Source: Candidatus Heimdallarchaeota archaeon
Lineage (GTDB): Archaea > Asgardarchaeota > Heimdallarchaeia > JABLTI01
Direction of reading: 5' to 3'
Length of the DNA stretch: 29,501 nt
NCBI GenBank assembly: GCA_030614005.1
Contig: JAUWKS010000042.1
Coordinates: 1-29,501, forward strand
Shown here: positions 4,669 to 20,132 of the stretch, in pieces
How positions within the stretch are numbered: the stretch's first letter is position 1
Layout of the letters: each line of letters begins with the position of its first letter
The notes under the pieces: generated by a model
What the model saw: the letters and a program-made list of their open reading frames with translations, nothing else
What the model was told of the DNA's origin: nothing
Databases searched by the model: none
Translations under genes and position numbers: made by a program

Positions 4669-5142
4669 TTATCCAAGTGCTTCCCAAGTGGCATATTTCT
4701 CCACATAAAGTTTAGCTTTTCGTTCGAATTCTTTAAGACTATTTTTGAACTCTTTTGCAGCAGTAGTATTTAATGGATCGTCAGGATTTGGGTTTGATAA
4801 TAGAAATCGTAATGATTCCACAATATCTACTAAATTACTTGCAGGTGTCCAATCTTTTCCCAATATACCTACACAAATTCTATCTTTGAAAATATTTGGA
4901 TGCCAAATAGGAGTTATAACTTTCACTTTTGGGGGCTTAAATGGGAATGATCTTGGCACATGTATTTCAAATTGAAATACGCCACCAGAATATAAACCAG
5001 TCCCTATCATAAATCCTCTCCAAACTCGAGTGTTCCCATTTATTGGTGTAAAGTTTGGTTCCTCTCTCTTCATTTCCCCTGCTTCAATAGCTAATCTTGC
5101 CCAAAAGTCATCCTCACTGAGTTCCATTTGATTCTTCCTCAT
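4669..5142 (-). CDS. Ubiquitin-conjugating enzyme E2 (UBC fold)
   Basis: FPFKPPKVKVITPIWHPNI, active-site ICVGIL, WTPA, and NPNPDDPLNTTAA. These are canonical UBC motifs with the catalytic Cys intact. Confidence 0.95.
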   Translation of the reverse strand: MRKNQMELSEDDFWARLAIEAGEMKREEPNFTPINGNTRVWRGFMIGTGLYSGGVFQFEIHVPRSFPFKPPKVKVITPIWHPNIFKDRICVGILGKDWTPASNLVDIVESLRFLLSNPNPDDPLNTTAAKEFKNSLKEFERKAKLYVEKYATWEALG

Positions 5143-8032: not shown

Positions 8033-11000
8033 TTACTTTACAACGGTTATTGTTGGAGTTTGCACTACTCCAATATGAGTATCATTAATTATACCTACTG
8101 TATCCACAATCCTACAATAAAACGAAACCGTTCGTTGTTTATAGGACCTAAATAATCCCTTTCGCATTGAAGGTGCTTTCCACTCGAAAGATTCCAAAAC
8201 GAAGTTCTCGCCTTTTTTCACTCGAGTTTTTAATCTGTACCTCTTAATTAGTTTAGCTCTGGCCTTCTTAGTAAATTGTAAGATATGTATTTCTCTAATA
8301 TCACTATGGGCTTTGAATTGTAATTTTGGGGTTATTTCTGTAACATAATTACTGCTAATTCTCGATTTAAGTGGAGGGTTTCCAAGTAAACTAAAATTAA
8401 TCAATTTTGACAATGGAGGTGAAACTTTGATCGAAGTAGTGGTACTGGATCCTCTACCATTAAAGACGCAAAGTATATGCCACTTGGATGAACACATACT
8501 AAGAGGTATTACCACAGGCAAATCAATTGTGAAAGTTTTTCTTGAAAATCTGGATTTCTTTTCATATAATTTGATTAAACCTCTTTGTGATAGCCCCCAT
8601 AAGGTTATTTTACCACGAATATTATTTCTTGAGAGAGTAGCTTTGACTTTAACAAAAGTTTCTCCAACAGGGTTAGGTGATGTTGTTAGATTTGTTATGG
8701 AATGTGTTTTATCTCTTGGAACCCTGACCTTTACACATAATTTATGAGCAGTGGCTAAAATTTTTCTACTCTTTCCATCTCGAACAATAAATCTTATCTG
8801 AAACTCACCAGTATAATTATTGAGTTGAATTGGAATTGGTAGGTAACAAAAATCAACTAGTGATGCTTTTTCTAGGTTAAAAGACTCTTGAAAAGATCTT
8901 CTTCTTGCACCACTTCCCTTAGTTAAGGGGACAAATTCCGCTTCTACTTTAACTGGATGTGAAATTTTGGATTGTAATATTGATCGACGCCATTTTATCT
9001 TTATTGCTGGAACAATTAATGAATAATCAACTTTAGATGGAAAGTTATGAACAGAGACATTTTTGACAAATTTAGATTCTTTGAAGAATTCTTCTCGTTG
9101 GAATGTTGGAGTAGCAGCAACTGTTTTTGTGGAAGACCCAGCAGTTCGATTTGAAGTTTTAGATTTTTGTTTCGTCCTCGATGCATTTGTTTTTGCACTT
9201 TTTGAAATACGAGGTTTTGGCAATACTACACTTTGTGTACGGTATCTAGAACTTGACGCTGTTGATGCATAAGCTTGCACTTTGCCCCTTGATCCTTTCT
9301 GCAGAGATTTTGATCTAGATGATGATTTCTTGGGGTAAGTCTTTGCTTTCACAGGTGCTTTTGTTCTAGTGGTCTTCTTGTGTTTAGCAGATGAATATCT
9401 CTTTTTAATGGATTTCTTACTTGATTTTGCAGGTGGTGACCTAGTTCGTGTTGGAAGCTTCTTTGTTGACTTTGCGGGTCGAATAGTTGCTACACGTTTT
9501 GATTTCAGCGAGGAGGAGGAACGTCTAACTGATTGAGCAGCCAAAGGTCTTGATGTGCGACCTGCAATGGGTTTTGGGGGTGGTTTTTTAGCTTTTTCAA
9601 GAAGTTTCAATCTCTCAAGGCGTTTTTTCTCCAAAACCTTTTCTCGTTTTATCTTTTCGCGTTGTGTTTTAGCTGCTTGAGCTTGTTTAACTTTCAGTCG
9701 TTGGCGTTCCTTTGCCATTACTTTTTTACGTCTTGCTCTGGAATCAAATTGTAGTTTACGAGCGATGGCACTTTGTGAAGTATCTTTAGTTCTTACAGGT
9801 TTTACTGCTTTTGTTTCAACAAATTCAGATACCGATTTATCGGGTTGACCTAACATTTCACTAAAGACTCTTCTAGGTCTGCCGTTCATTAATCCCAAAC
9901 TTTTGATAAGATTTGCAATATTGTTGTGATTTTGTTCATATAAATAAAACATAAATGTAGCTGCAGAAATAGGAGGAGCTATTCGAGCTGTTCCCCACAA
10001 CATAATAAGAAGAGGAGCAAGTTCGCTTTCTTTCATTCGTAATTCAGTTAACTCTGGTTTTAACCAGATAAGTAGGGCACGCAAAGATTCATAGATTTTC
10101 CCAGGAGGTCCACCTGTTTCTGGATTGTGATTATAATATTTAGCGAAAAGTCCGCCTGACGCTTCGATGCTAGGGTCTCCTTGGAATTTTGCGAACATAC
10201 CAAAGTTTACTGCTCTTTTACGATGTTCGTAAAGTGTATTTCCTTTTATTTCAGGAATCGTTGTGCCAGCTCTAACCATCTTAGCACCTTTCAATGCTAA
10301 TGCTTGAAGTAATAAGATAATTGAAATTCGAATACTTTGATCATATTGTGCATCAAAGAATCGACACTCTATGGTTCCATAGACTGTATATGGATAAGCA
10401 TCTACATACCGGTCATCGGGAATTTCTTTTCGTACATGTCTTGAGAATTGGGTTTTAGTATAAGATGAACTAACGTGTGGTAAATAATCAGGCATATTTG
10501 GACCCAATTGTCCGGAATTTTCTTTTAACCGAAAACTTCGAACACTGTCCGGAGCTAAAACCATTGTTCTTCCATCATTACCCTTCTTCAGGATAATACG
10601 GCCAGCTGGCTTTCCATTTACAAATGGAGAAGTATTAGACAAAGCTATCAGATGCGGAATATAAGCTCGAATCATGTTATAAGCAGCGCTTTTTTCAGAC
10701 TCATTTTTGAATCCACCAAGGTGGTGATGTTCTCCACAAGTCACTCCAGCTCGATATTCGGATTGATAAGGATTGAATCCCAGTGCTTGAATATTATATC
10801 CTTTAGTAATTGATTGAGAAGCAGCTAAGTAGAGAGTATTTACCCACCAATCCAATTCTTCAACATATTCACAAGGAGGAGTTACTAATTCTAATAGCCA
10901 GGTTATTTGTGAAATATTTGGATCAGGACCAAAAACATTAATCGCAATGGATTTACCATTGACTGTATATTCAATTTGGACATAGCGAATCATTTTTCCA

Positions 11001-11275
11001 TGTCTTTCTACGTCCTTTCTCGAAACACGTTTAATTTTTTTCCTGATATAATCTGGCACATTTCTTGTACTACTTGTCAAGGATTTTAAGAAACCTAATG
11101 CACCATTAAACATCTGATCCCAGACTGCAACTAATTCTTTTCCGTCCTCTAAAATTTCTCCACGTTTATCAGTAATGAAATTCTCAACTTCTAAACCATG
11201 AGTAAAAGGCAACTTACGTAGGGTACTTGTAGCAGAATTTGCTGATTTTATGTTTGTGGGACGTTTATTGCTCAT
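8033..11275 (-). CDS. Large multidomain protein: GCS2/YbdK-type carboxylate-amine ligase + Lys/Arg/Ser-rich linker + beta-rich C-terminus
   Basis: HGLEVE, LELVTPP, CGEHHHLG, LIALSNTSPF and TIECRFFD match glutamate-cysteine ligase family 2. About aa 500-730 are low-complexity and basic. About aa 740-1080 show alternating beta-strand patterns. Confidence 0.8.
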   Translation of the reverse strand: MSNKRPTNIKSANSATSTLRKLPFTHGLEVENFITDKRGEILEDGKELVAVWDQMFNGALGFLKSLTSSTRNVPDYIRKKIKRVSRKDVERHGKMIRYVQIEYTVNGKSIAINVFGPDPNISQITWLLELVTPPCEYVEELDWWVNTLYLAASQSITKGYNIQALGFNPYQSEYRAGVTCGEHHHLGGFKNESEKSAAYNMIRAYIPHLIALSNTSPFVNGKPAGRIILKKGNDGRTMVLAPDSVRSFRLKENSGQLGPNMPDYLPHVSSSYTKTQFSRHVRKEIPDDRYVDAYPYTVYGTIECRFFDAQYDQSIRISIILLLQALALKGAKMVRAGTTIPEIKGNTLYEHRKRAVNFGMFAKFQGDPSIEASGGLFAKYYNHNPETGGPPGKIYESLRALLIWLKPELTELRMKESELAPLLIMLWGTARIAPPISAATFMFYLYEQNHNNIANLIKSLGLMNGRPRRVFSEMLGQPDKSVSEFVETKAVKPVRTKDTSQSAIARKLQFDSRARRKKVMAKERQRLKVKQAQAAKTQREKIKREKVLEKKRLERLKLLEKAKKPPPKPIAGRTSRPLAAQSVRRSSSSLKSKRVATIRPAKSTKKLPTRTRSPPAKSSKKSIKKRYSSAKHKKTTRTKAPVKAKTYPKKSSSRSKSLQKGSRGKVQAYASTASSSRYRTQSVVLPKPRISKSAKTNASRTKQKSKTSNRTAGSSTKTVAATPTFQREEFFKESKFVKNVSVHNFPSKVDYSLIVPAIKIKWRRSILQSKISHPVKVEAEFVPLTKGSGARRRSFQESFNLEKASLVDFCYLPIPIQLNNYTGEFQIRFIVRDGKSRKILATAHKLCVKVRVPRDKTHSITNLTTSPNPVGETFVKVKATLSRNNIRGKITLWGLSQRGLIKLYEKKSRFSRKTFTIDLPVVIPLSMCSSKWHILCVFNGRGSSTTTSIKVSPPLSKLINFSLLGNPPLKSRISSNYVTEITPKLQFKAHSDIREIHILQFTKKARAKLIKRYRLKTRVKKGENFVLESFEWKAPSMRKGLFRSYKQRTVSFYCRIVDTVGIINDTHIGVVQTPTITVVK

Positions 11276-11319
11276 TACTCATTCATACCCTACTTTTGCA
11301 CAATGTACAAATCTGTATT

Positions 11320-12747
11320 TCATTTTGGTTTTTGATGTAATAGATAATCAAACAAATATTGTTGAGTAAATGGATAGCTCTCTTCTTGTTCTTCGAGAAT
11401 CTTTGTTATCTTGGATGCAAAATCCATTAGTGTGGTTACCTCAGAGACATTTAATTTTCCATTTTTAAGTTGTTGAATCACAAAACTTCTGCGAATATCA
11501 ATTATATCTGCAAATATATTGAGAATATACAACTCTTCGTAGACATTACTTCCAGAAGGATCGAATAATGCATCTGTATTGAAGTACACACCAGAAATAG
11601 AGCACAATTCAGCAACAATTTCAGAAAGTTTTTCTTGAGTCTTAACTTTCAATATTTTATCGAAATCCTTTCTTGTTACTTTAGATTTTTCAACACCTTC
11701 GCGGTCAATCACTTTTTGAGGCCAATAAATTTTCAGCATACGCAGAGCATTTAATCCCAGAACATGTCTTATATGATCAAAGGTTAATCCTTGTTCTTTT
11801 GCTTTTTGGGAAAACAAGTAAGTAAGATGATCACTTGCTTGTGGGACACCGAAGTAATTATGATCTGTTCCATACATCGTGGATAAATGCCAATCCTCTA
11901 CAAGGTCAAGGCAATTTTTGTAGAAAATTTCACAATCGTCGCCTCTCATTCCTGAAGTTTCAGTTTTAATATTGGAGTCACCTAAAATTTCATACATACC
12001 TTTCGTTGTATAATCAAAGCCAAAATGCCCAAGTATTACTGTAAAATCATCATTCTTTGCTCGTTTTCTAACTTCCATTGTCACCTGATGTATCTCTTGA
12101 GCTGTTTGATAATTTTGAACATCAAAAATAACTGGTAATTTATAATCAACTGCTGTACGAACTATTTCAATAACATTTTCACTAACTATATCGTTTATCC
12201 AGTTTTCTGAAAGGGGATGGAGTTTTAATCCTCTTGCGCCATATTCCACACATCTGAGAATCTCATCAATAGCTTTTCCCTTATCATTTGGATTTACACG
12301 ACAAAACGGAACCAATCTCGAGCCATACTCGAGTGTTTGTGCGCGAGTTATGATATAATTATTCGAACGAACAAAATGAGGTGATGTTTTTGCATGGAGA
12401 GTATCATGTAATGGAAAAGTAACTATTTTGTCTGCAAACCAACCGATATTCTGTGTAGTTCTTTTATCTCGAAAGATATCTTGTTGTAATCTAGTTGCAG
12501 GCATTGTGAAATCATTTGCTTTTTCTGGTAATTCAAACGCATAATCCTCCGGATAACTTGTAATCCTTTTGTGAACATCGTATTTTAATTTCTCATAGAA
12601 ATCTATGTGATCCTTCGGTCTTACGATTCTGTAGTCTTTACCTTTTCCGCTTACAACCATTTCCTTTCCCAAATGTGTGTGAGTGTCCACTACATTAAGC
12701 TTCAGCGGTTTCTTCTTAGGATCCTCTTTATCAAATATAATTATCAT
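11320..12747 (-). CDS. Amidohydrolase-superfamily metallohydrolase (Amidohydro_2-like) with C-terminal extension
   Basis: VVDTHTHLG (HxH), RGLKLHP, LPVIFD, ILGHFG, MYGTDH. Confidence 0.85.
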   Translation of the reverse strand: MIIIFDKEDPKKKPLKLNVVDTHTHLGKEMVVSGKGKDYRIVRPKDHIDFYEKLKYDVHKRITSYPEDYAFELPEKANDFTMPATRLQQDIFRDKRTTQNIGWFADKIVTFPLHDTLHAKTSPHFVRSNNYIITRAQTLEYGSRLVPFCRVNPNDKGKAIDEILRCVEYGARGLKLHPLSENWINDIVSENVIEIVRTAVDYKLPVIFDVQNYQTAQEIHQVTMEVRKRAKNDDFTVILGHFGFDYTTKGMYEILGDSNIKTETSGMRGDDCEIFYKNCLDLVEDWHLSTMYGTDHNYFGVPQASDHLTYLFSQKAKEQGLTFDHIRHVLGLNALRMLKIYWPQKVIDREGVEKSKVTRKDFDKILKVKTQEKLSEIVAELCSISGVYFNTDALFDPSGSNVYEELYILNIFADIIDIRRSFVIQQLKNGKLNVSEVTTLMDFASKITKILEEQEESYPFTQQYLFDYLLHQKPK

Positions 12748-12832
12748 TAGCGTTACCTCAAATATATTAACTGAATAAAGGCATTGTATACTGCTAGTAT
12801 ATTAGTAAGTTTCTACCTTATATAGAGATATT

Positions 12833-12848
12833 TACATACAATTACATA
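12833..12848 (-). promoter_or_regulatory. Candidate operator TATGTA-ATTG-TATGTA upstream of the amidohydrolase-ligase operon
   Basis: Direct repeat with 10-bp period, just upstream of a TATATAAG box on the minus strand. 15/16 identical to 18629-18644. Confidence 0.3.
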
Positions 12849-12902
12849 GATATACAACCTATCTAAAAACCCTTGCATTTGGACAGAAAAAAAAAGAAAA
12901 TG

Positions 12903-16202: not shown

Positions 16203-16547
16203 TTGACAAAAGATCTATCTATTCACATTAAAATCTGGTTTGAAAAAAAGGGTGAATCTGTTATTGGGCCCGGTAGAATGGCTATCTTGGAGGCAATAGA
16301 TCAAACTGGTTCACTAACTCAAGCAACAGAGATGTGCAATATATCTTTTCGTAAGGCTTGGAAGCTAATCAATGAAATTAATGATAAAATGGAACAACCA
16401 GTAATTTCTACTGCTCGAGGAGGTAAAGGAGGAGGAGGTGGAACAACACTTACAGAATATGGAAAAAAGTTGCTAAAGCAATATAGAAAAATTCAATCTG
16501 TTTTAGAAGGTGTAGTAAGTAATCCTGATATCTGGTCTGAAATATAA
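16203..16547 (+). CDS. ModE-family winged-helix transcriptional regulator (HTH only)
   Basis: IGPGRMAILEAIDQTGSL...ISFRKAWKLI...ARGGKGGGGGTTLTEYG. No TOBE/molybdate-binding domain. Confidence 0.9.
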   Translation: MTKDLSIHIKIWFEKKGESVIGPGRMAILEAIDQTGSLTQATEMCNISFRKAWKLINEINDKMEQPVISTARGGKGGGGGTTLTEYGKKLLKQYRKIQSVLEGVVSNPDIWSEI

Positions 16548-16571
16548 AGAGAAAATAATAAGAAAAAAGTC

Positions 16572-17627
16572 CTATTGATCGTTTTCTTGATCAGGATCTT
16601 TTAAACGCTTTCGTTCAGCATTTAATCTATCAAGGAAACTAAATCTACTAGATTTTTTCTTTGTTGGAGCTGTTTTATCAACTGGTTGTTGTTCATCAAG
16701 GGGCGGTTGGGTTGAAGGTTGTTCCATTATTGGAGGAGTAATTGTGCTTATGGGTTGAGTCGCAGTTTTCTCGGGTTCTGTGGGTGGTTCAATGATAGGT
16801 TCAACAACAGGTTGTTCAGTTAAATCTGTAGTAGTTGGAGCTAATGATATAGGTTCTGTGAAGGAAGGTTTGGCTGACTCTTTTTGCTCTGCTTCATTTA
16901 CCATGGGAGGAGATACTACGCTTGCCTCAGGAGTTATTGGAGCTGTTGGCATTGCCATTATATTATCCACTGTTGGAGCTTCAATAGAAGGCACTCTACC
17001 TATACCTAAAGGCTGGGCAGATATGTGTTGAGAACCGGAAATTGTATGTACTTCAGGTTGCTGAGGATGAGAAGTATCTACCATTTCGGTTGAAGGCATA
17101 TCCAATCCTTTCTTATCAAAAATCATCAACTTGCTTATCGCTTCAAATGTTTCTGTTATACCGATTCCTTTCAAGCTTGTTGTTGGAATATAGAAAGATA
17201 TATTGAGTCTTTTTGCTGTTTCTAAGCCTTCTTCATTCAATACTTCACGGAGCTCTTCTACATCATTCTTTGTACTAACAAGAACCTTTGGAATGTTTAT
17301 GTCCTCTAGTTTGTTAATCCATCGATCAAGAGAATCGAGTGTATCTCTTCGTGTTGTATCGTAACAAAGGATGGCACCATGGGCACCTTTTGTAAAAATA
17401 TTACTAATTTCAGCAAATTGATCTTGTCCACCAATATCACAGATCTGTAATGTTACTTCTTCTCCATCCACAACTAGTTTTTTGCTAAAGAAATCAGCGC
17501 CAATAGATAATTTGTAGCTTCCAAAGAATTCACCGGTGGTTAGGTAATTACAAATAGATGTTTTACCAATTCCGCCGTCACCAAGGACTACTACTTTGAA
17601 GAAGGTTGCCACTAAATATGTCTCCAA
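16572..17627 (-). CDS. Rab-like small GTPase with long Pro/Thr/Gln/Glu-rich C-terminal tail
   Basis: G1 GDGGIGKT, switch I YKLSIGADF, G3 DIGGQ, GAHGAILCYD, G4 STKND. About 180-aa low-complexity tail. Confidence 0.92.
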   Translation of the reverse strand: METYLVATFFKVVVLGDGGIGKTSICNYLTTGEFFGSYKLSIGADFFSKKLVVDGEEVTLQICDIGGQDQFAEISNIFTKGAHGAILCYDTTRRDTLDSLDRWINKLEDINIPKVLVSTKNDVEELREVLNEEGLETAKRLNISFYIPTTSLKGIGITETFEAISKLMIFDKKGLDMPSTEMVDTSHPQQPEVHTISGSQHISAQPLGIGRVPSIEAPTVDNIMAMPTAPITPEASVVSPPMVNEAEQKESAKPSFTEPISLAPTTTDLTEQPVVEPIIEPPTEPEKTATQPISTITPPIMEQPSTQPPLDEQQPVDKTAPTKKKSSRFSFLDRLNAERKRLKDPDQENDQ

Positions 17628-18020
17628 TTATTTTAGATGATTATTTGTTTATTAAATGTATATAAAACATTTGTAAGTAATTTATTACATATTTCCTACT
17701 AAAATTACCTATTTAAGTTTTCGATACGTACTATCTTCAGACAAAAAACAGCTTGAATTTTTTTTGTTTATATTCTTGAAGAACAGCAATTTTTTTGATA
17801 TACAATATCATATGTAATAGACTATTGTAAACAATCAGAGCAAGGTCTCGTTTTTTCTTACTAAAAATTGCGATTTAGAGGAAAAATTCTTATTTGTTTA
17901 CCAAACTTTTAATGAGAGTACCTACGGATAAACATTAATTGTAGATATAATTATTAATAAAAAAGAATAGAAATCAATAAAAACCATCAAATATCAGCAG
18001 ATATGGACAAGTGTTATTCG

Positions 18021-18518
18021 ATGAAAATCTCAAGAATTATAAAAAACAGGAAGGCAATGACACCTTTAATGATTGGATTAATTGTCGCCGCATCAGTAAT
18101 AGCTGTTTTGTTTATTGTATTGGCAGCAGTAGTCCCTTCTATGAGTCATGATTTAAGTATGCAAATTAAGGATCGAAGCATTAAGGGAAATACCACTATT
18201 AATGATCTTTCTTTGAAATTTACAGTAATGTGTGATTACGCTGATGGCGAAGTTTGGAGAGCAGAAATTCACAAGAATGGTGCACTTTACGGTTACTTTA
18301 GTTTAGCTGACGAAACTCCCTTTGAGAAGAATGAACAAAGATTGGTTGTTGTAGCGTACTTTTTAGCTGAAACAGGTATAAATCAAACTGAGGTTGATGG
18401 TGGTCGATTGGTTTTCCAAAATGGACATGATTATGTTCTAAGAGTTTTTTATAGACCTATTGACTCTGAAGTATTAAACACATATACCGAATTAGGTTTT
18501 ACCTATATTCCTGCGTGA
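18021..18518 (+). CDS. Archaeal type IV pilin-like protein (class III signal peptide)
   Basis: Basic KNRKA|MTPLMIGLIVAASVIAVLFIVLAAVVP resembles a PibD/FlaK cleavage site followed by a hydrophobic helix, then a beta-rich domain. ATG 18021 preferred over 18003. Confidence 0.75.
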   Translation: MKISRIIKNRKAMTPLMIGLIVAASVIAVLFIVLAAVVPSMSHDLSMQIKDRSIKGNTTINDLSLKFTVMCDYADGEVWRAEIHKNGALYGYFSLADETPFEKNEQRLVVVAYFLAETGINQTEVDGGRLVFQNGHDYVLRVFYRPIDSEVLNTYTELGFTYIPA

Positions 18519-18623: not shown

Positions 18624-18669
18624 GTATGTATGTAAATGTATGTAGAAATACATACACAGAGATACATAG
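18624..18669 (+). promoter_or_regulatory. TATGTA/TACATA repeat cluster with perfect GAAA-tetraloop hairpin upstream of the Cdc48N-vWA gene
   Basis: TGTATGTA-GAAA-TACATACA (18637-18656) plus extra TATGTA and TACATA copies on either side. Confidence 0.4.
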
Positions 18670-18683
18670 TTTGTGATATAAAA

Positions 18684-20132
18684 ATGGTAGAGAAAATAAT
18701 TGACATTTCAGTGATGAATGTCGGCGAAATTGATGGGCGCGCTTATATGAATAAGCGTGACATGGACAGAATTGGTGTAGATGATTTTGATATCATCCAA
18801 CTAATTAATGAATTTGAAGATAGCTGTGCAGTACAAGTTCTCGAGAATGATGAAGTAGAGGCAGATACAGTTGCAGTAGATAACGGAATTCTTGATTCTG
18901 CAAACATTAGCGACGGCGACAGGGTGAAAATAAGAAAAGCCCAAATTAAAGATGAAGCAATAACTAGAGTGAAGTTTGGCATTGAACCTCTTGAAGGTCA
19001 ACCAGTTGAAGAATGTATAACCTACATTTTGGAGAATTTTGATGAATTAACATCAGTTATAAGAAATAGACCAGTATACCGTAATTTACAAATTGACTGG
19101 CCTGATGCAGGGTGTGGACACGTCAAAATCACCTTTTTAGATGCAGACCCAGATATGGAAGGCGATGAAGTTGGTATTATTGATCCTTCAGGAAAAGAAG
19201 TTGAAGTTCAATTAGTGCCAGCAAGCGAAATGTCCTTCAATGCAGTTCTAATTCTCGATGTATCGGGTTCAATGAGTAAAGTTGATATGATCGTTAAAGG
19301 AACTGGAACAGCAGTTGAAGGGTTAAGAAGAGGTCTTAAAGGAAGCAAAGATTTAGACAAACTCTTAGACGAATTCGAAGAGAAGAAAGTCTCTCGAATT
19401 AAAGGTGCTGCCTTAGCAACTCTAATGTTCCTTTCACAGAAAGTTAGTCGTGGTTGGGGCGAACAATTATCTATTCTCAGTTTTGCTGGGGATGTTGATG
19501 TGTTTGAAATTGAATATGGTTCTGGTGGTCCTACACCAGTCATTGCATGCACTGGTCAAGCAAAATCAGCTGGTCTAGAAATCATTGCCGATTATGTTTC
19601 CAAGAGATGCTCTAAAGGCGGTGGACTTACATTCATGAGTGGTGCAATTCAACAAGCTTATGAAATGACAAAGAAATTCGAGCCAAATTCAATAACAGGT
19701 AAGATGAATCCAGCAATGATTATCCTTCTTACTGATGGTCAACCAAACAAAGGTAATGGTCTTGGTATAAATCCAGTACCCGTTGCTCGCAAATGCGCAC
19801 GAGATTATCCAAATACGATTTTTTATACCATTGGTCTTGGTGAAGCAGATAAAAGACTTCTCAAAAAGTTATCAGAAATTGGCAGAGGAGAATTTTACGA
19901 GGCTAATGACCTTGGAGAATTAACTAAATTCTACGACCTCCTTGCAAGACGATTCATGATCGCCTTAAAAACCGAACCAACTGAACTTGTTGAACAAGTT
20001 CCAGAAGACTTCTTTGATGAAGTCGCTGACGATGAAGAAAGCGATGAAGTCGAATTAGCTCTTGAGGAAGAGTATGGTGGTGCTGGCGAGGACATAGAAG
20101 AATTCGAAGAAGAACTCGAAGAAGACGATTAA
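18684..20132 (+). CDS. Cdc48/NSF N-domain + von Willebrand A domain + acidic tail protein
   Basis: Double-psi barrel pattern (GRAYMN..DMDRIGV..FDII...AN ISDGDRVKIRK), then a Cdc48_2-like subdomain. MIDAS motifs DVSGS, T and LLTDGQPN. D/E-rich C-terminus. ATG 18684 preferred over 18636. Confidence 0.85.
   Translation: MVEKIIDISVMNVGEIDGRAYMNKRDMDRIGVDDFDIIQLINEFEDSCAVQVLENDEVEADTVAVDNGILDSANISDGDRVKIRKAQIKDEAITRVKFGIEPLEGQPVEECITYILENFDELTSVIRNRPVYRNLQIDWPDAGCGHVKITFLDADPDMEGDEVGIIDPSGKEVEVQLVPASEMSFNAVLILDVSGSMSKVDMIVKGTGTAVEGLRRGLKGSKDLDKLLDEFEEKKVSRIKGAALATLMFLSQKVSRGWGEQLSILSFAGDVDVFEIEYGSGGPTPVIACTGQAKSAGLEIIADYVSKRCSKGGGLTFMSGAIQQAYEMTKKFEPNSITGKMNPAMIILLTDGQPNKGNGLGINPVPVARKCARDYPNTIFYTIGLGEADKRLLKKLSEIGRGEFYEANDLGELTKFYDLLARRFMIALKTEPTELVEQVPEDFFDEVADDEESDEVELALEEEYGGAGEDIEEFEEELEEDD

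Follow-up and report, generated by a model that had tools for sequence, protein, structure and literature searches.

The DNA analyzed here is a window of 29,501 nucleotides (contig JAUWKS010000042.1) from a Heimdall-type Asgard archaeon, the genome of which is 90% complete. Two neighboring genes in the window, one for a predicted carboxylate-amine ligase and the other for a TIM-barrel metallo-enzyme, are two parts of a conserved three-gene module. The third gene encodes a protein that combines a Cdc48-N-like barrel (Cdc48N) with a von Willebrand factor A (vWA) domain. An original prediction from this DNA had described a pair: the linkage of the two genes held, but a third member of the system, the vWA gene at a distance of ~6 kb, had been overlooked. 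The three genes are as follows.

11320-12747, minus strand: TIM-barrel metallo-enzyme ("amidohydrolase", P0002; here the hydrolase), 475 amino acids, ATG start; from the open reading frame (ORF), PF04909 and an AlphaFold2 model.
8033-11275, minus strand: ligase (P0001), 1080 amino acids, ATG start; from the ORF.
18636-20132, plus strand: Cdc48-N-like double-psi beta-barrel plus vWA protein, 498 amino acids with a 40-residue acidic tail; from Pfam, alignment and PDB profile comparison.

With a probability of roughly one in two, the trio is a ligation module directed at a macromolecule; the substrate most likely is not a free metabolite but a protein or peptide. This reading is favored because of the combination of the obligatory vWA/Cdc48N partner with its carboxylate-binding metal site, ubiquitin-like (Ubl) partner proteins, binding domains fused to the ligase, and fusion of a hydrolase-like domain with the vWA protein.

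Co-inheritance was assessed in 200 Asgard genomes from 27 families. The ligase family (960–1416 amino acids) spans metagenome-assembled genomes (MAGs) of the Heimdall, Hod, Loki, Thor, Freya, Jord and Sigyn types. The ligase domain was found in 103 of the 200 genomes and the hydrolase in 108. Strong matches to both fell in the same nine families (f1, f4, f9, f10, f11, f13, f22, f26 and f27) with per-family tallies that nearly coincide, and the two genes lie 0–12 kb apart in these families. The Cdc48N-vWA protein, which was recognized as a conserved neighbor from 20 Asgard loci, occurs in the same nine families, and the remaining 18 yielded no match at E ≤ 1e-10. Thus, ligase, hydrolase and vWA protein share an all-or-none pattern over the 27 families and are encoded next to each other in most lineages, and the conservation of the ligase-hydrolase pair implied by the original prediction was borne out, also in Thermoplasmata.

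In Hod, the hydrolase, ligase and vWA genes follow each other in a single operon. Jord and Freya genomes carry the hydrolase and then the vWA gene convergent on the ligase, and possess two paralogous sets in which this arrangement is kept. All three genes lie within 12 kb in Thor and are clustered in Asgardarchaeum. In Loki, a short ligase (~570 amino acids) is followed by the hydrolase, and a longer vWA homolog is located elsewhere in the genome. The latter is ~720 amino acids in length, with extra Cdc48N-like repeats in the only copy examined (L047, an f26 locus). The ligases of the Loki-type loci (L044-L047 and L050) lack the Ig-like module described below and bear a basic N-terminal tail. 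The Loki ligase is preceded by a conserved ~620-residue protein, "c6", which has neither a Pfam match nor a detectable relation to the Ig-like C-terminal module. In Thor, f27 and the second of the two sets found in Jord and Freya, the gene immediately upstream of that for the ligase specifies a different protein, of 215–265 amino acids (L036:13421-14164, L041:4087-4740 and relatives); it comprises a coiled coil and an alpha/beta domain with an "FGGG" motif, and is without a Pfam match. Genes that intervene in the Thor loci (DUF92, SPFH/NfeD, Rce1-like, HEAT and ABC ATPases) were considered as components of the trio but look like passengers.

The trio extends to a second phylum, Thermoplasmata. 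An exhaustive profile search with the ligase recovered 104 representatives at E ≤ 1e-30, including forms of ~700 amino acids and giants of 2200–3800 amino acids. Sixteen contig loci were obtained from MAGs that mostly are labeled Thermoplasmata or Thermoplasmatota, among them Ca. Natronoplasma and a Methanomassiliicoccales MAG, with taxonomic labels used as deposited. Hidden Markov models built from the Asgard trio matched genes neighboring these ligases: 10 of the 16 loci contain hydrolase, ligase and vWA genes, and the remainder mostly are incomplete at their ends or possess ligase and vWA genes. Two paralogous Ubl-domain proteins of 150–185 amino acids are encoded between the hydrolase and ligase genes in Thermoplasmata (L052-L062; for example, L053:8657-9629). 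Their N-terminal domains match PF00240 (ubiquitin) in 9 of 19 cases, with a best E value of 1e-10, and Rad60-SLD in 5 of 19. This domain is followed by an acidic linker and by a C-terminal "WLxxNIGL" domain of ~70 residues that recurs just N-terminal of the catalytic domain in Thermoplasmata ligases. The latter begin with a transmembrane helix and then a lysine cluster, and therefore the catalytic domain should face the cytoplasm.

In the giant proteins of 2200–3800 amino acids (L065:1021-9381; P0144, P0150, P0161 and P0167) the ligase domain is positioned near the C-terminus, and P0150 also contains a helix-hairpin-helix domain. At locus L065, the gene for the giant is next to a vWA gene and is followed by that for a further protein of 2619 amino acids. 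Very large surface-type proteins (NosD/beta-helix, Big_3, PKD and CARDB) are encoded beside the trio in 12 of the 16 Thermoplasmata loci (L053:3205-7194, L060:2-7630 and L067:5040-12551 are examples), but their position is variable and the proximity may be coincidental.

The ligase of the window is organized in three parts.

9866-11275, minus strand: catalytic domain, residues 1-470, YbdK/GCS2 fold; from Pfam, NCBIfam, alignment, profile and tree.
9056-9865, minus strand: charged helix and then a polybasic arm of low hydrophobicity, residues ~471-740; from translation and composition profiles.
8036-9055, minus strand: three tandem immunoglobulin (Ig)/MG/FN3-like beta-sandwich domains, residues 741-1080; from AlphaFold2, Foldseek and hhalign.

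Ten residues of the catalytic domain (E29, E31, E129, H183, H185, R203, R249, E303, R305 and D308) are invariant in an alignment of 21 diverse family members. A profile of these members aligned with Escherichia coli YbdK (1R8G; E 6e-13), the nearest solved structure, via the ExE, HxH/SP and ExR..D motifs. A PDB search with the single ligase sequence gave no match, and YbdK was reached by the profile alone. Because the motifs are invariant and the profile aligns with those of YbdK, the core of an ATP-dependent carboxylate-amine ligase is intact, which agrees with the retention of GCS2-type catalytic motifs reported in the original prediction. The Pfam GCS2 model (PF04107) scored 27.7 bits against a cut-off of 21, covering residues 175–225 only, and the ligase is its sole match in the genome. 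The NCBIfam model for the YbdK subfamily (TIGR02050) returned 51.7 bits, below its cut-off of 176.4, and the glutamate-cysteine ligase equivalogs (NF010039-45) returned 21–41 bits, below their cut-offs of 371–437. A search of the ESM Atlas recovered only proteins of the same kind and a viral GCS2 cluster.

The relationship of the ligase to known enzymes was assessed further in a quick maximum-likelihood tree (LG+G4; Shimodaira-Hasegawa-like approximate likelihood ratio test (SH-aLRT) support without bootstraps) that was rooted on TIGR02050-positive YbdK. All trio ligases fall in one clade of 59 rows with SH-aLRT support of 99, and an intermediate family of ~360-residue proteins separates this clade from four TIGR02050-positive proteins. 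The clade includes an Asgard subclade, a subclade of Thermoplasmata proteins and giants (support of 98), and a subclade of paralogs of ~500 amino acids (P0163, P0166, P0190 and P0192), those that are named deriving from Heimdallarchaeaceae and Promethearchaeota MAGs. With every equivalog score under its cut-off, a separate clade and no PF02955 glutathione synthetase in the 90%-complete genome, the view in the original prediction that the protein is not a plain GshA or YbdK stood up.

The ~600 additional residues that had been noted in the ligase amount to ~610, and consist of the basic arm (~270 residues, with residues ~480-740 rich in lysine, arginine and serine, low in hydrophobicity and disordered) and then the three beta-sandwiches. 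The polybasic arm is confined to this genus, and the net charge of the whole protein is +124. Residues 741-1080 were modeled by AlphaFold2 as three beta-sandwich domains with a mean per-residue confidence (pLDDT) of 92.8 and a predicted template modeling score (pTM) of 0.87. Foldseek detected only a generic likeness of this module to MG-domain, FN3, transglutaminase-C and integrin structures, and BLAST did not detect the module outside the genus. Profile comparison with hhalign nevertheless indicated homology with the C-terminal parts of the ligases of Hod (97.6%) and of the Loki/Freya type (94%), and those parts in turn are homologous to the Thor forms (99.2%). Within the genus, the C-terminal module is 52% identical compared to 77% for the catalytic domain. 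By these comparisons the beta-sandwich module of Asgard ligases is ancestral, yet fast-evolving. The vWA partner ends in an acidic tail of 40 residues with a charge of -23 (20010-20132). Neither a basic arm nor an acidic tail of this extremity was seen in the other lineages that were compared. The arm and tail may tether the ligase and the vWA protein to each other electrostatically; alternatively, the arm may bind nucleic acid.

The hydrolase matches Pfam Amidohydro_2 (PF04909) with 38.2 bits against a cut-off of 26.4. Residues D21, H23, H25, K175, H177, H241 and D295 are invariant in 63 hydrolases, including those of Thermoplasmata, and the HxH pair, a histidine and an aspartate would provide the metal ligands along with a catalytic histidine. 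The AlphaFold2 model (pLDDT 87.9) comprises a barrel (residues ~17-341) and a C-terminal alpha/beta domain (residues ~359-452). The closest folds identified by an exhaustive aligner were 4dlf (Z 22.8), 3cjp (21.7), LigW (21.6) and 3nur (21.5), followed by LigI, IDCase and ACMSD; Foldseek agreed with this placement. The first peptidase among the fold matches was isoaspartyl dipeptidase at Z 19.1. On the modeled fold, the hydrolase is placed nearest to the Amidohydro_2/ACMSD-related group and away from peptidases. Characterized members of the group are lactonases, decarboxylases and hydratases, and "amidohydrolase" therefore denotes a superfamily here rather than an established activity. Amide or isopeptide hydrolysis by the predicted enzyme is not fixed by the shared fold.

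The vWA domain of the third partner possesses an intact metal ion-dependent adhesion site (MIDAS): D208-x-S210-x-S212, T332 and D367 do not vary among 14 aligned sequences. Pfam VWA and CDC48_N were both found on the protein, the latter (PF02359) with 30.1 bits which is under its cut-off of 35.1. In a comparison with the PDB, the profile of the protein matched vWA domains, and also the N-domains of VAT and p97 at E values of 0.002–0.05. Proteins of ~880 amino acids in Thor and Freya fuse a hydrolase-like domain to Cdc48N-vWA. The HxH, K175, H177, H241 and D295 residues are lost from the three Thor fusions that were aligned (L042:391-3063, L043:17134-19770 and L051:1822-4446), and the DxSxS part of the MIDAS is kept in the L042 fusion, the only one checked. 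As the hydrolase residues have been lost, the Thor fusions are predicted to be pseudo-enzyme scaffolds that accompany an active hydrolase gene. The genome also encodes a second, distant Cdc48N-vWA paralog (G000:C81:77022-78257; E 4.5e-32, 27% identity) outside the trio locus.

The hydrolase and ligase genes of the window are flanked by the following intergenic features.

11276-11319, minus strand: 44-nucleotide spacer from the hydrolase stop to the ligase start, without an oligo-T run; read directly from the sequence.
12748-12902, minus strand: 155-nucleotide intergenic region upstream of the hydrolase; read directly from the sequence.

The minus-strand ORFs and the spacer confirm the co-orientation and the 44-nucleotide distance given in the original prediction. 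No terminator-like site was seen in a scan of the minus strand. The upstream region contains an oligo-T tract right behind the PFK stop codon, and then an A/T-rich TATA-like stretch ahead of the hydrolase start; it likely includes the promoter of a hydrolase-ligase operon. A promoter and terminator scan gave a signal no higher than in shuffled sequences. Transcription of hydrolase and ligase as one message is plausible because the spacer lacks an oligo-T run and the upstream region has both an oligo-T tract and an A/T-rich box. Further genes in the window specify an E2, a GTPase of the Ras family, and Asgard Cas1-TnpB. The E2 gene (PF00179, E 1e-32) is positioned at 4669-5142 on the minus strand, two genes downstream of the ligase, and probably lies outside the trio because its neighborhood is kept only within the genus. 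The neighboring genes for MetRS, PFK, the Ras-like GTPase and a winged helix-turn-helix protein were rejected as trio components with the E2 gene on the same grounds. Between the hydrolase and vWA genes, 16203-17627 specifies a winged-helix protein (114 amino acids) and the Ras-family GTPase (351 amino acids). An ORF of 171 amino acids (18003-18518, plus strand) directly upstream of the vWA gene and on the same strand encodes an N-terminal hydrophobic pilin-like segment; a Pfam search of its product was without a match. The DNA was seen in sequencing runs of marine-sediment and cold-seep metagenomes, and no RNA run was listed as containing it.

On the chemistry, the substrate and the order of steps, we infer the following for a macromolecule-directed module. 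The motif set shared with YbdK/GCS2 suggests that the ligase would use ATP-Mg to convert a carboxylate into an acyl-phosphate and would join it to an amine. The non-catalytic parts, which are variable, would tether the enzyme to a large partner or to a particular location. In the window they are three Ig-like domains on a basic arm, in Thermoplasmata a membrane anchor and a small domain that is shared, and in other cases giant bodies of many domains. The Cdc48N-vWA protein would act as a docking subunit whose MIDAS metal binds an acidic residue or carboxylate and whose barrel binds a peptide or ubiquitin-like fold. The ACMSD-type metallo-enzyme and the docking protein would share a substrate or adduct, with the enzyme either preparing the substrate, or dismantling or converting the product.

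The genomic context favors the macromolecular target that the original prediction proposed, but several points weigh against a protein or peptide substrate. Ig-like and vWA domains indicate binding, not the thing that is bound. Those relatives of the hydrolase that have been characterized use small carboxylates as substrates, and small molecules are also the presumed substrates of FluG and similar pairs of an amidohydrolase with a ligase of glutamine synthetase (GS) fold (PMC6478659). The Thermoplasmata Ubl proteins have no Gly-Gly end and carry an extra C-terminal domain, and therefore look like adaptors rather than tags. Homologs of these proteins were not found in the 90%-complete genome, among the ORFs of 21 Asgard loci or, by hhalign, in neighbor clusters. 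Genomes within a lineage are kin, and the co-occurrence counts overstate the independence of the observations.

The strongest alternative, although the less probable, is a FluG-like small-molecule pathway. In it, hydrolysis, lactone opening or decarboxylation by the TIM-barrel enzyme would yield or use up an amine or carboxylate metabolite, the ligase would then join this compound to glutamate or another acid, and the vWA protein and Ig-like domains would serve only as scaffolds or for localization. The Amidohydro_2 lactonases, decarboxylases and hydratases that are the nearest solved relatives of the hydrolase fit this alternative, as does the use of free amino acids by all characterized YbdK/GCS2 enzymes named by NCBIfam. 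FluG and bacterial gene pairs that couple an amidohydrolase with a GS-fold gamma-glutamyl ligase (PMC6478659) set a precedent. However, an obligatory MIDAS-vWA/Cdc48N protein, Ubl partners, a membrane anchor, fusions of 2200–3800 amino acids and rapidly evolving arrays of Ig-like domains are atypical of metabolite enzymes, and neither a transporter nor a further pathway gene is conserved with the trio among the neighbors in the fetched loci.

More tentatively still, the trio may be an archaeal protein modification system that is independent of E1 and E2: the YbdK-fold ligase would write an amide mark of isopeptide or gamma-glutamyl type, Cdc48N-vWA would read the mark or a Ubl-bearing partner, and the TIM-barrel enzyme would edit it. 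Features of E1/E2-type conjugation were not found in the module: no Ubl protein with a Gly-Gly end was detected, and the E2 at 4669-5142 is a neighbor within the genus only.

The strict writer/eraser arrangement of the original prediction, in which the ligase attaches a gamma-glutamyl or isopeptide tag that the amidohydrolase removes, is doubtful. PafA and Dop, the enzymes of pupylation, belong to the same superfamily as the ligase; the genes are co-oriented and probably co-transcribed; their linkage is conserved; and the hydrolase has kept a metal site typical of hydrolytic enzymes of the amidohydrolase superfamily. The arrangement is a special case of a macromolecule-directed module to which an extra claim is added, however. 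The designation of the hydrolase as an eraser was a guess. Its closest solved relatives (Z 20–23) are lactonases, decarboxylases and hydratases, and there is no peptidase or isopeptidase among the closest folds. The hydrolase equally could precede the ligase, as Dop does when it deamidates Pup ahead of ligation. The link with PafA and Dop does not go beyond the shared superfamily: the ligase has no match to PF03136 (Pup ligase/Dop) at E ≤ 1, and neither a Pup-like tag gene nor a deamidase paralogous to the ligase occurs among conserved neighbors in 36 loci. Asgard archaea also are not known to encode a tag gene.

A role in conflict or defence, with fast-evolving binding domains that recognize invaders, is improbable. 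Patchy distribution among Asgard families, rapid divergence of the C-terminal module, duplicated sets and giant variants would accord with such a role, but PADLOC matched no component of the trio, each genome has a single stable copy, members cluster by lineage in the ligase tree, and the trio itself lacks a mobile-element context. Least credible is a plain glutamate-cysteine ligase with extra domains for gamma-Glu-Cys thiol synthesis, which is suggested by the Pfam and NCBIfam names and by haloarchaeal GshA being a member of this Pfam family (PF04107 is matched in Haloferax, the control genome), but which is countered by scores of 21–52 bits against cut-offs of 176–437, a clade separate from YbdK, non-metabolic conserved partners and the missing glutathione synthetase.

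Overall, the trio is kept across most Loki-, Thor-, Hod-, Jord- and Freya-type Asgard archaea, some of the Heimdall type, and Thermoplasmata, and with its discovery in the second phylum two independent, compact versions of the system are available. As its parts (an ATP-dependent amide ligase, a recognition protein with Cdc48-N-like and vWA domains and, in one phylum, Ubl-domain partners) resemble protein-tagging machinery, the module could uncover a new way of modifying proteins in the closest lineage to eukaryotes. A protein modification system independent of E1 and E2, if this is what the trio is, would add a third, independently invented form of protein tagging to ubiquitylation and pupylation, in archaeal relatives of eukaryotes. 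If the substrate instead were small, the trio would represent a new branch of enzymology within the YbdK family, the physiological role of which still is poorly understood.

A full-text literature search found no paper that describes the trio, with FluG as the sole analog. FluG and the bacterial pairs likewise couple, by fusion or adjacency, an enzyme of the amidohydrolase superfamily to an amide ligase of the GS superfamily, with the substrate open (PMC6478659). However, the FluG ligase is GSI-like whereas that of the trio is YbdK-like; the FluG hydrolase belongs to the binuclear carbamyl-lysine type, with 2QPX as a relative, and 2QPX aligned with the trio hydrolase at only Z 16.6; and FluG is without the vWA partner, Ig-like modules and Ubl proteins. 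The YbdK/GCS2 ligases (PF04107, TIGR02050; E. coli YbdK, 1R8G/1TT4) share with the trio ligase the fold and the motifs G-x-E-x-E, H-x-H, S-P and T-x-E-x-R-x-x-D. The trio ligase differs in scores well below the cut-offs, in its separate clade, in 100–3300 extra residues, and in being found always with the TIM-barrel metallo-enzyme and Cdc48N-vWA. The ACMSD/Amidohydro_2 enzymes (COG2159 and COG3618: LigI, LigW, IDCase, ACMSD and the 4DLF lactonase) have the same TIM barrel (Z 19–23) as the trio hydrolase, and in both the HxH, histidine and aspartate follow the usual pattern of the amidohydrolase superfamily. The trio enzyme has only 10–23% identity with this group, an extra N-terminal beta-hairpin, the C-terminal alpha/beta domain, the invariant K175, and genomic partners unlike those of any characterized member.

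Pupylation in actinobacteria (PafA, Dop and Pup) is an analogy in working principle only, comprising a ligase of the GS/GCS superfamily, a partner enzyme that prepares or removes, and a recognition module. The trio ligase shows no sequence match to the Pup ligase family, its partner enzyme is a TIM-barrel metallo-enzyme instead of a ligase paralog, and no Pup-like gene was found. The third partner recalls the Cdc48/p97 N-domain with its UBX/Ubl adaptors and the vWA receptors of Rpn10 type, as it has both a barrel of Cdc48-N-like type and a vWA domain with a MIDAS, and Ubl-domain proteins are encoded beside it in Thermoplasmata. By analogy with Cdc48/p97, the Ubl domains may bind the Cdc48N barrel. 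The trio protein, in contrast to Cdc48 and Rpn10, possesses neither an AAA+ ATPase module nor a ubiquitin-interacting motif.

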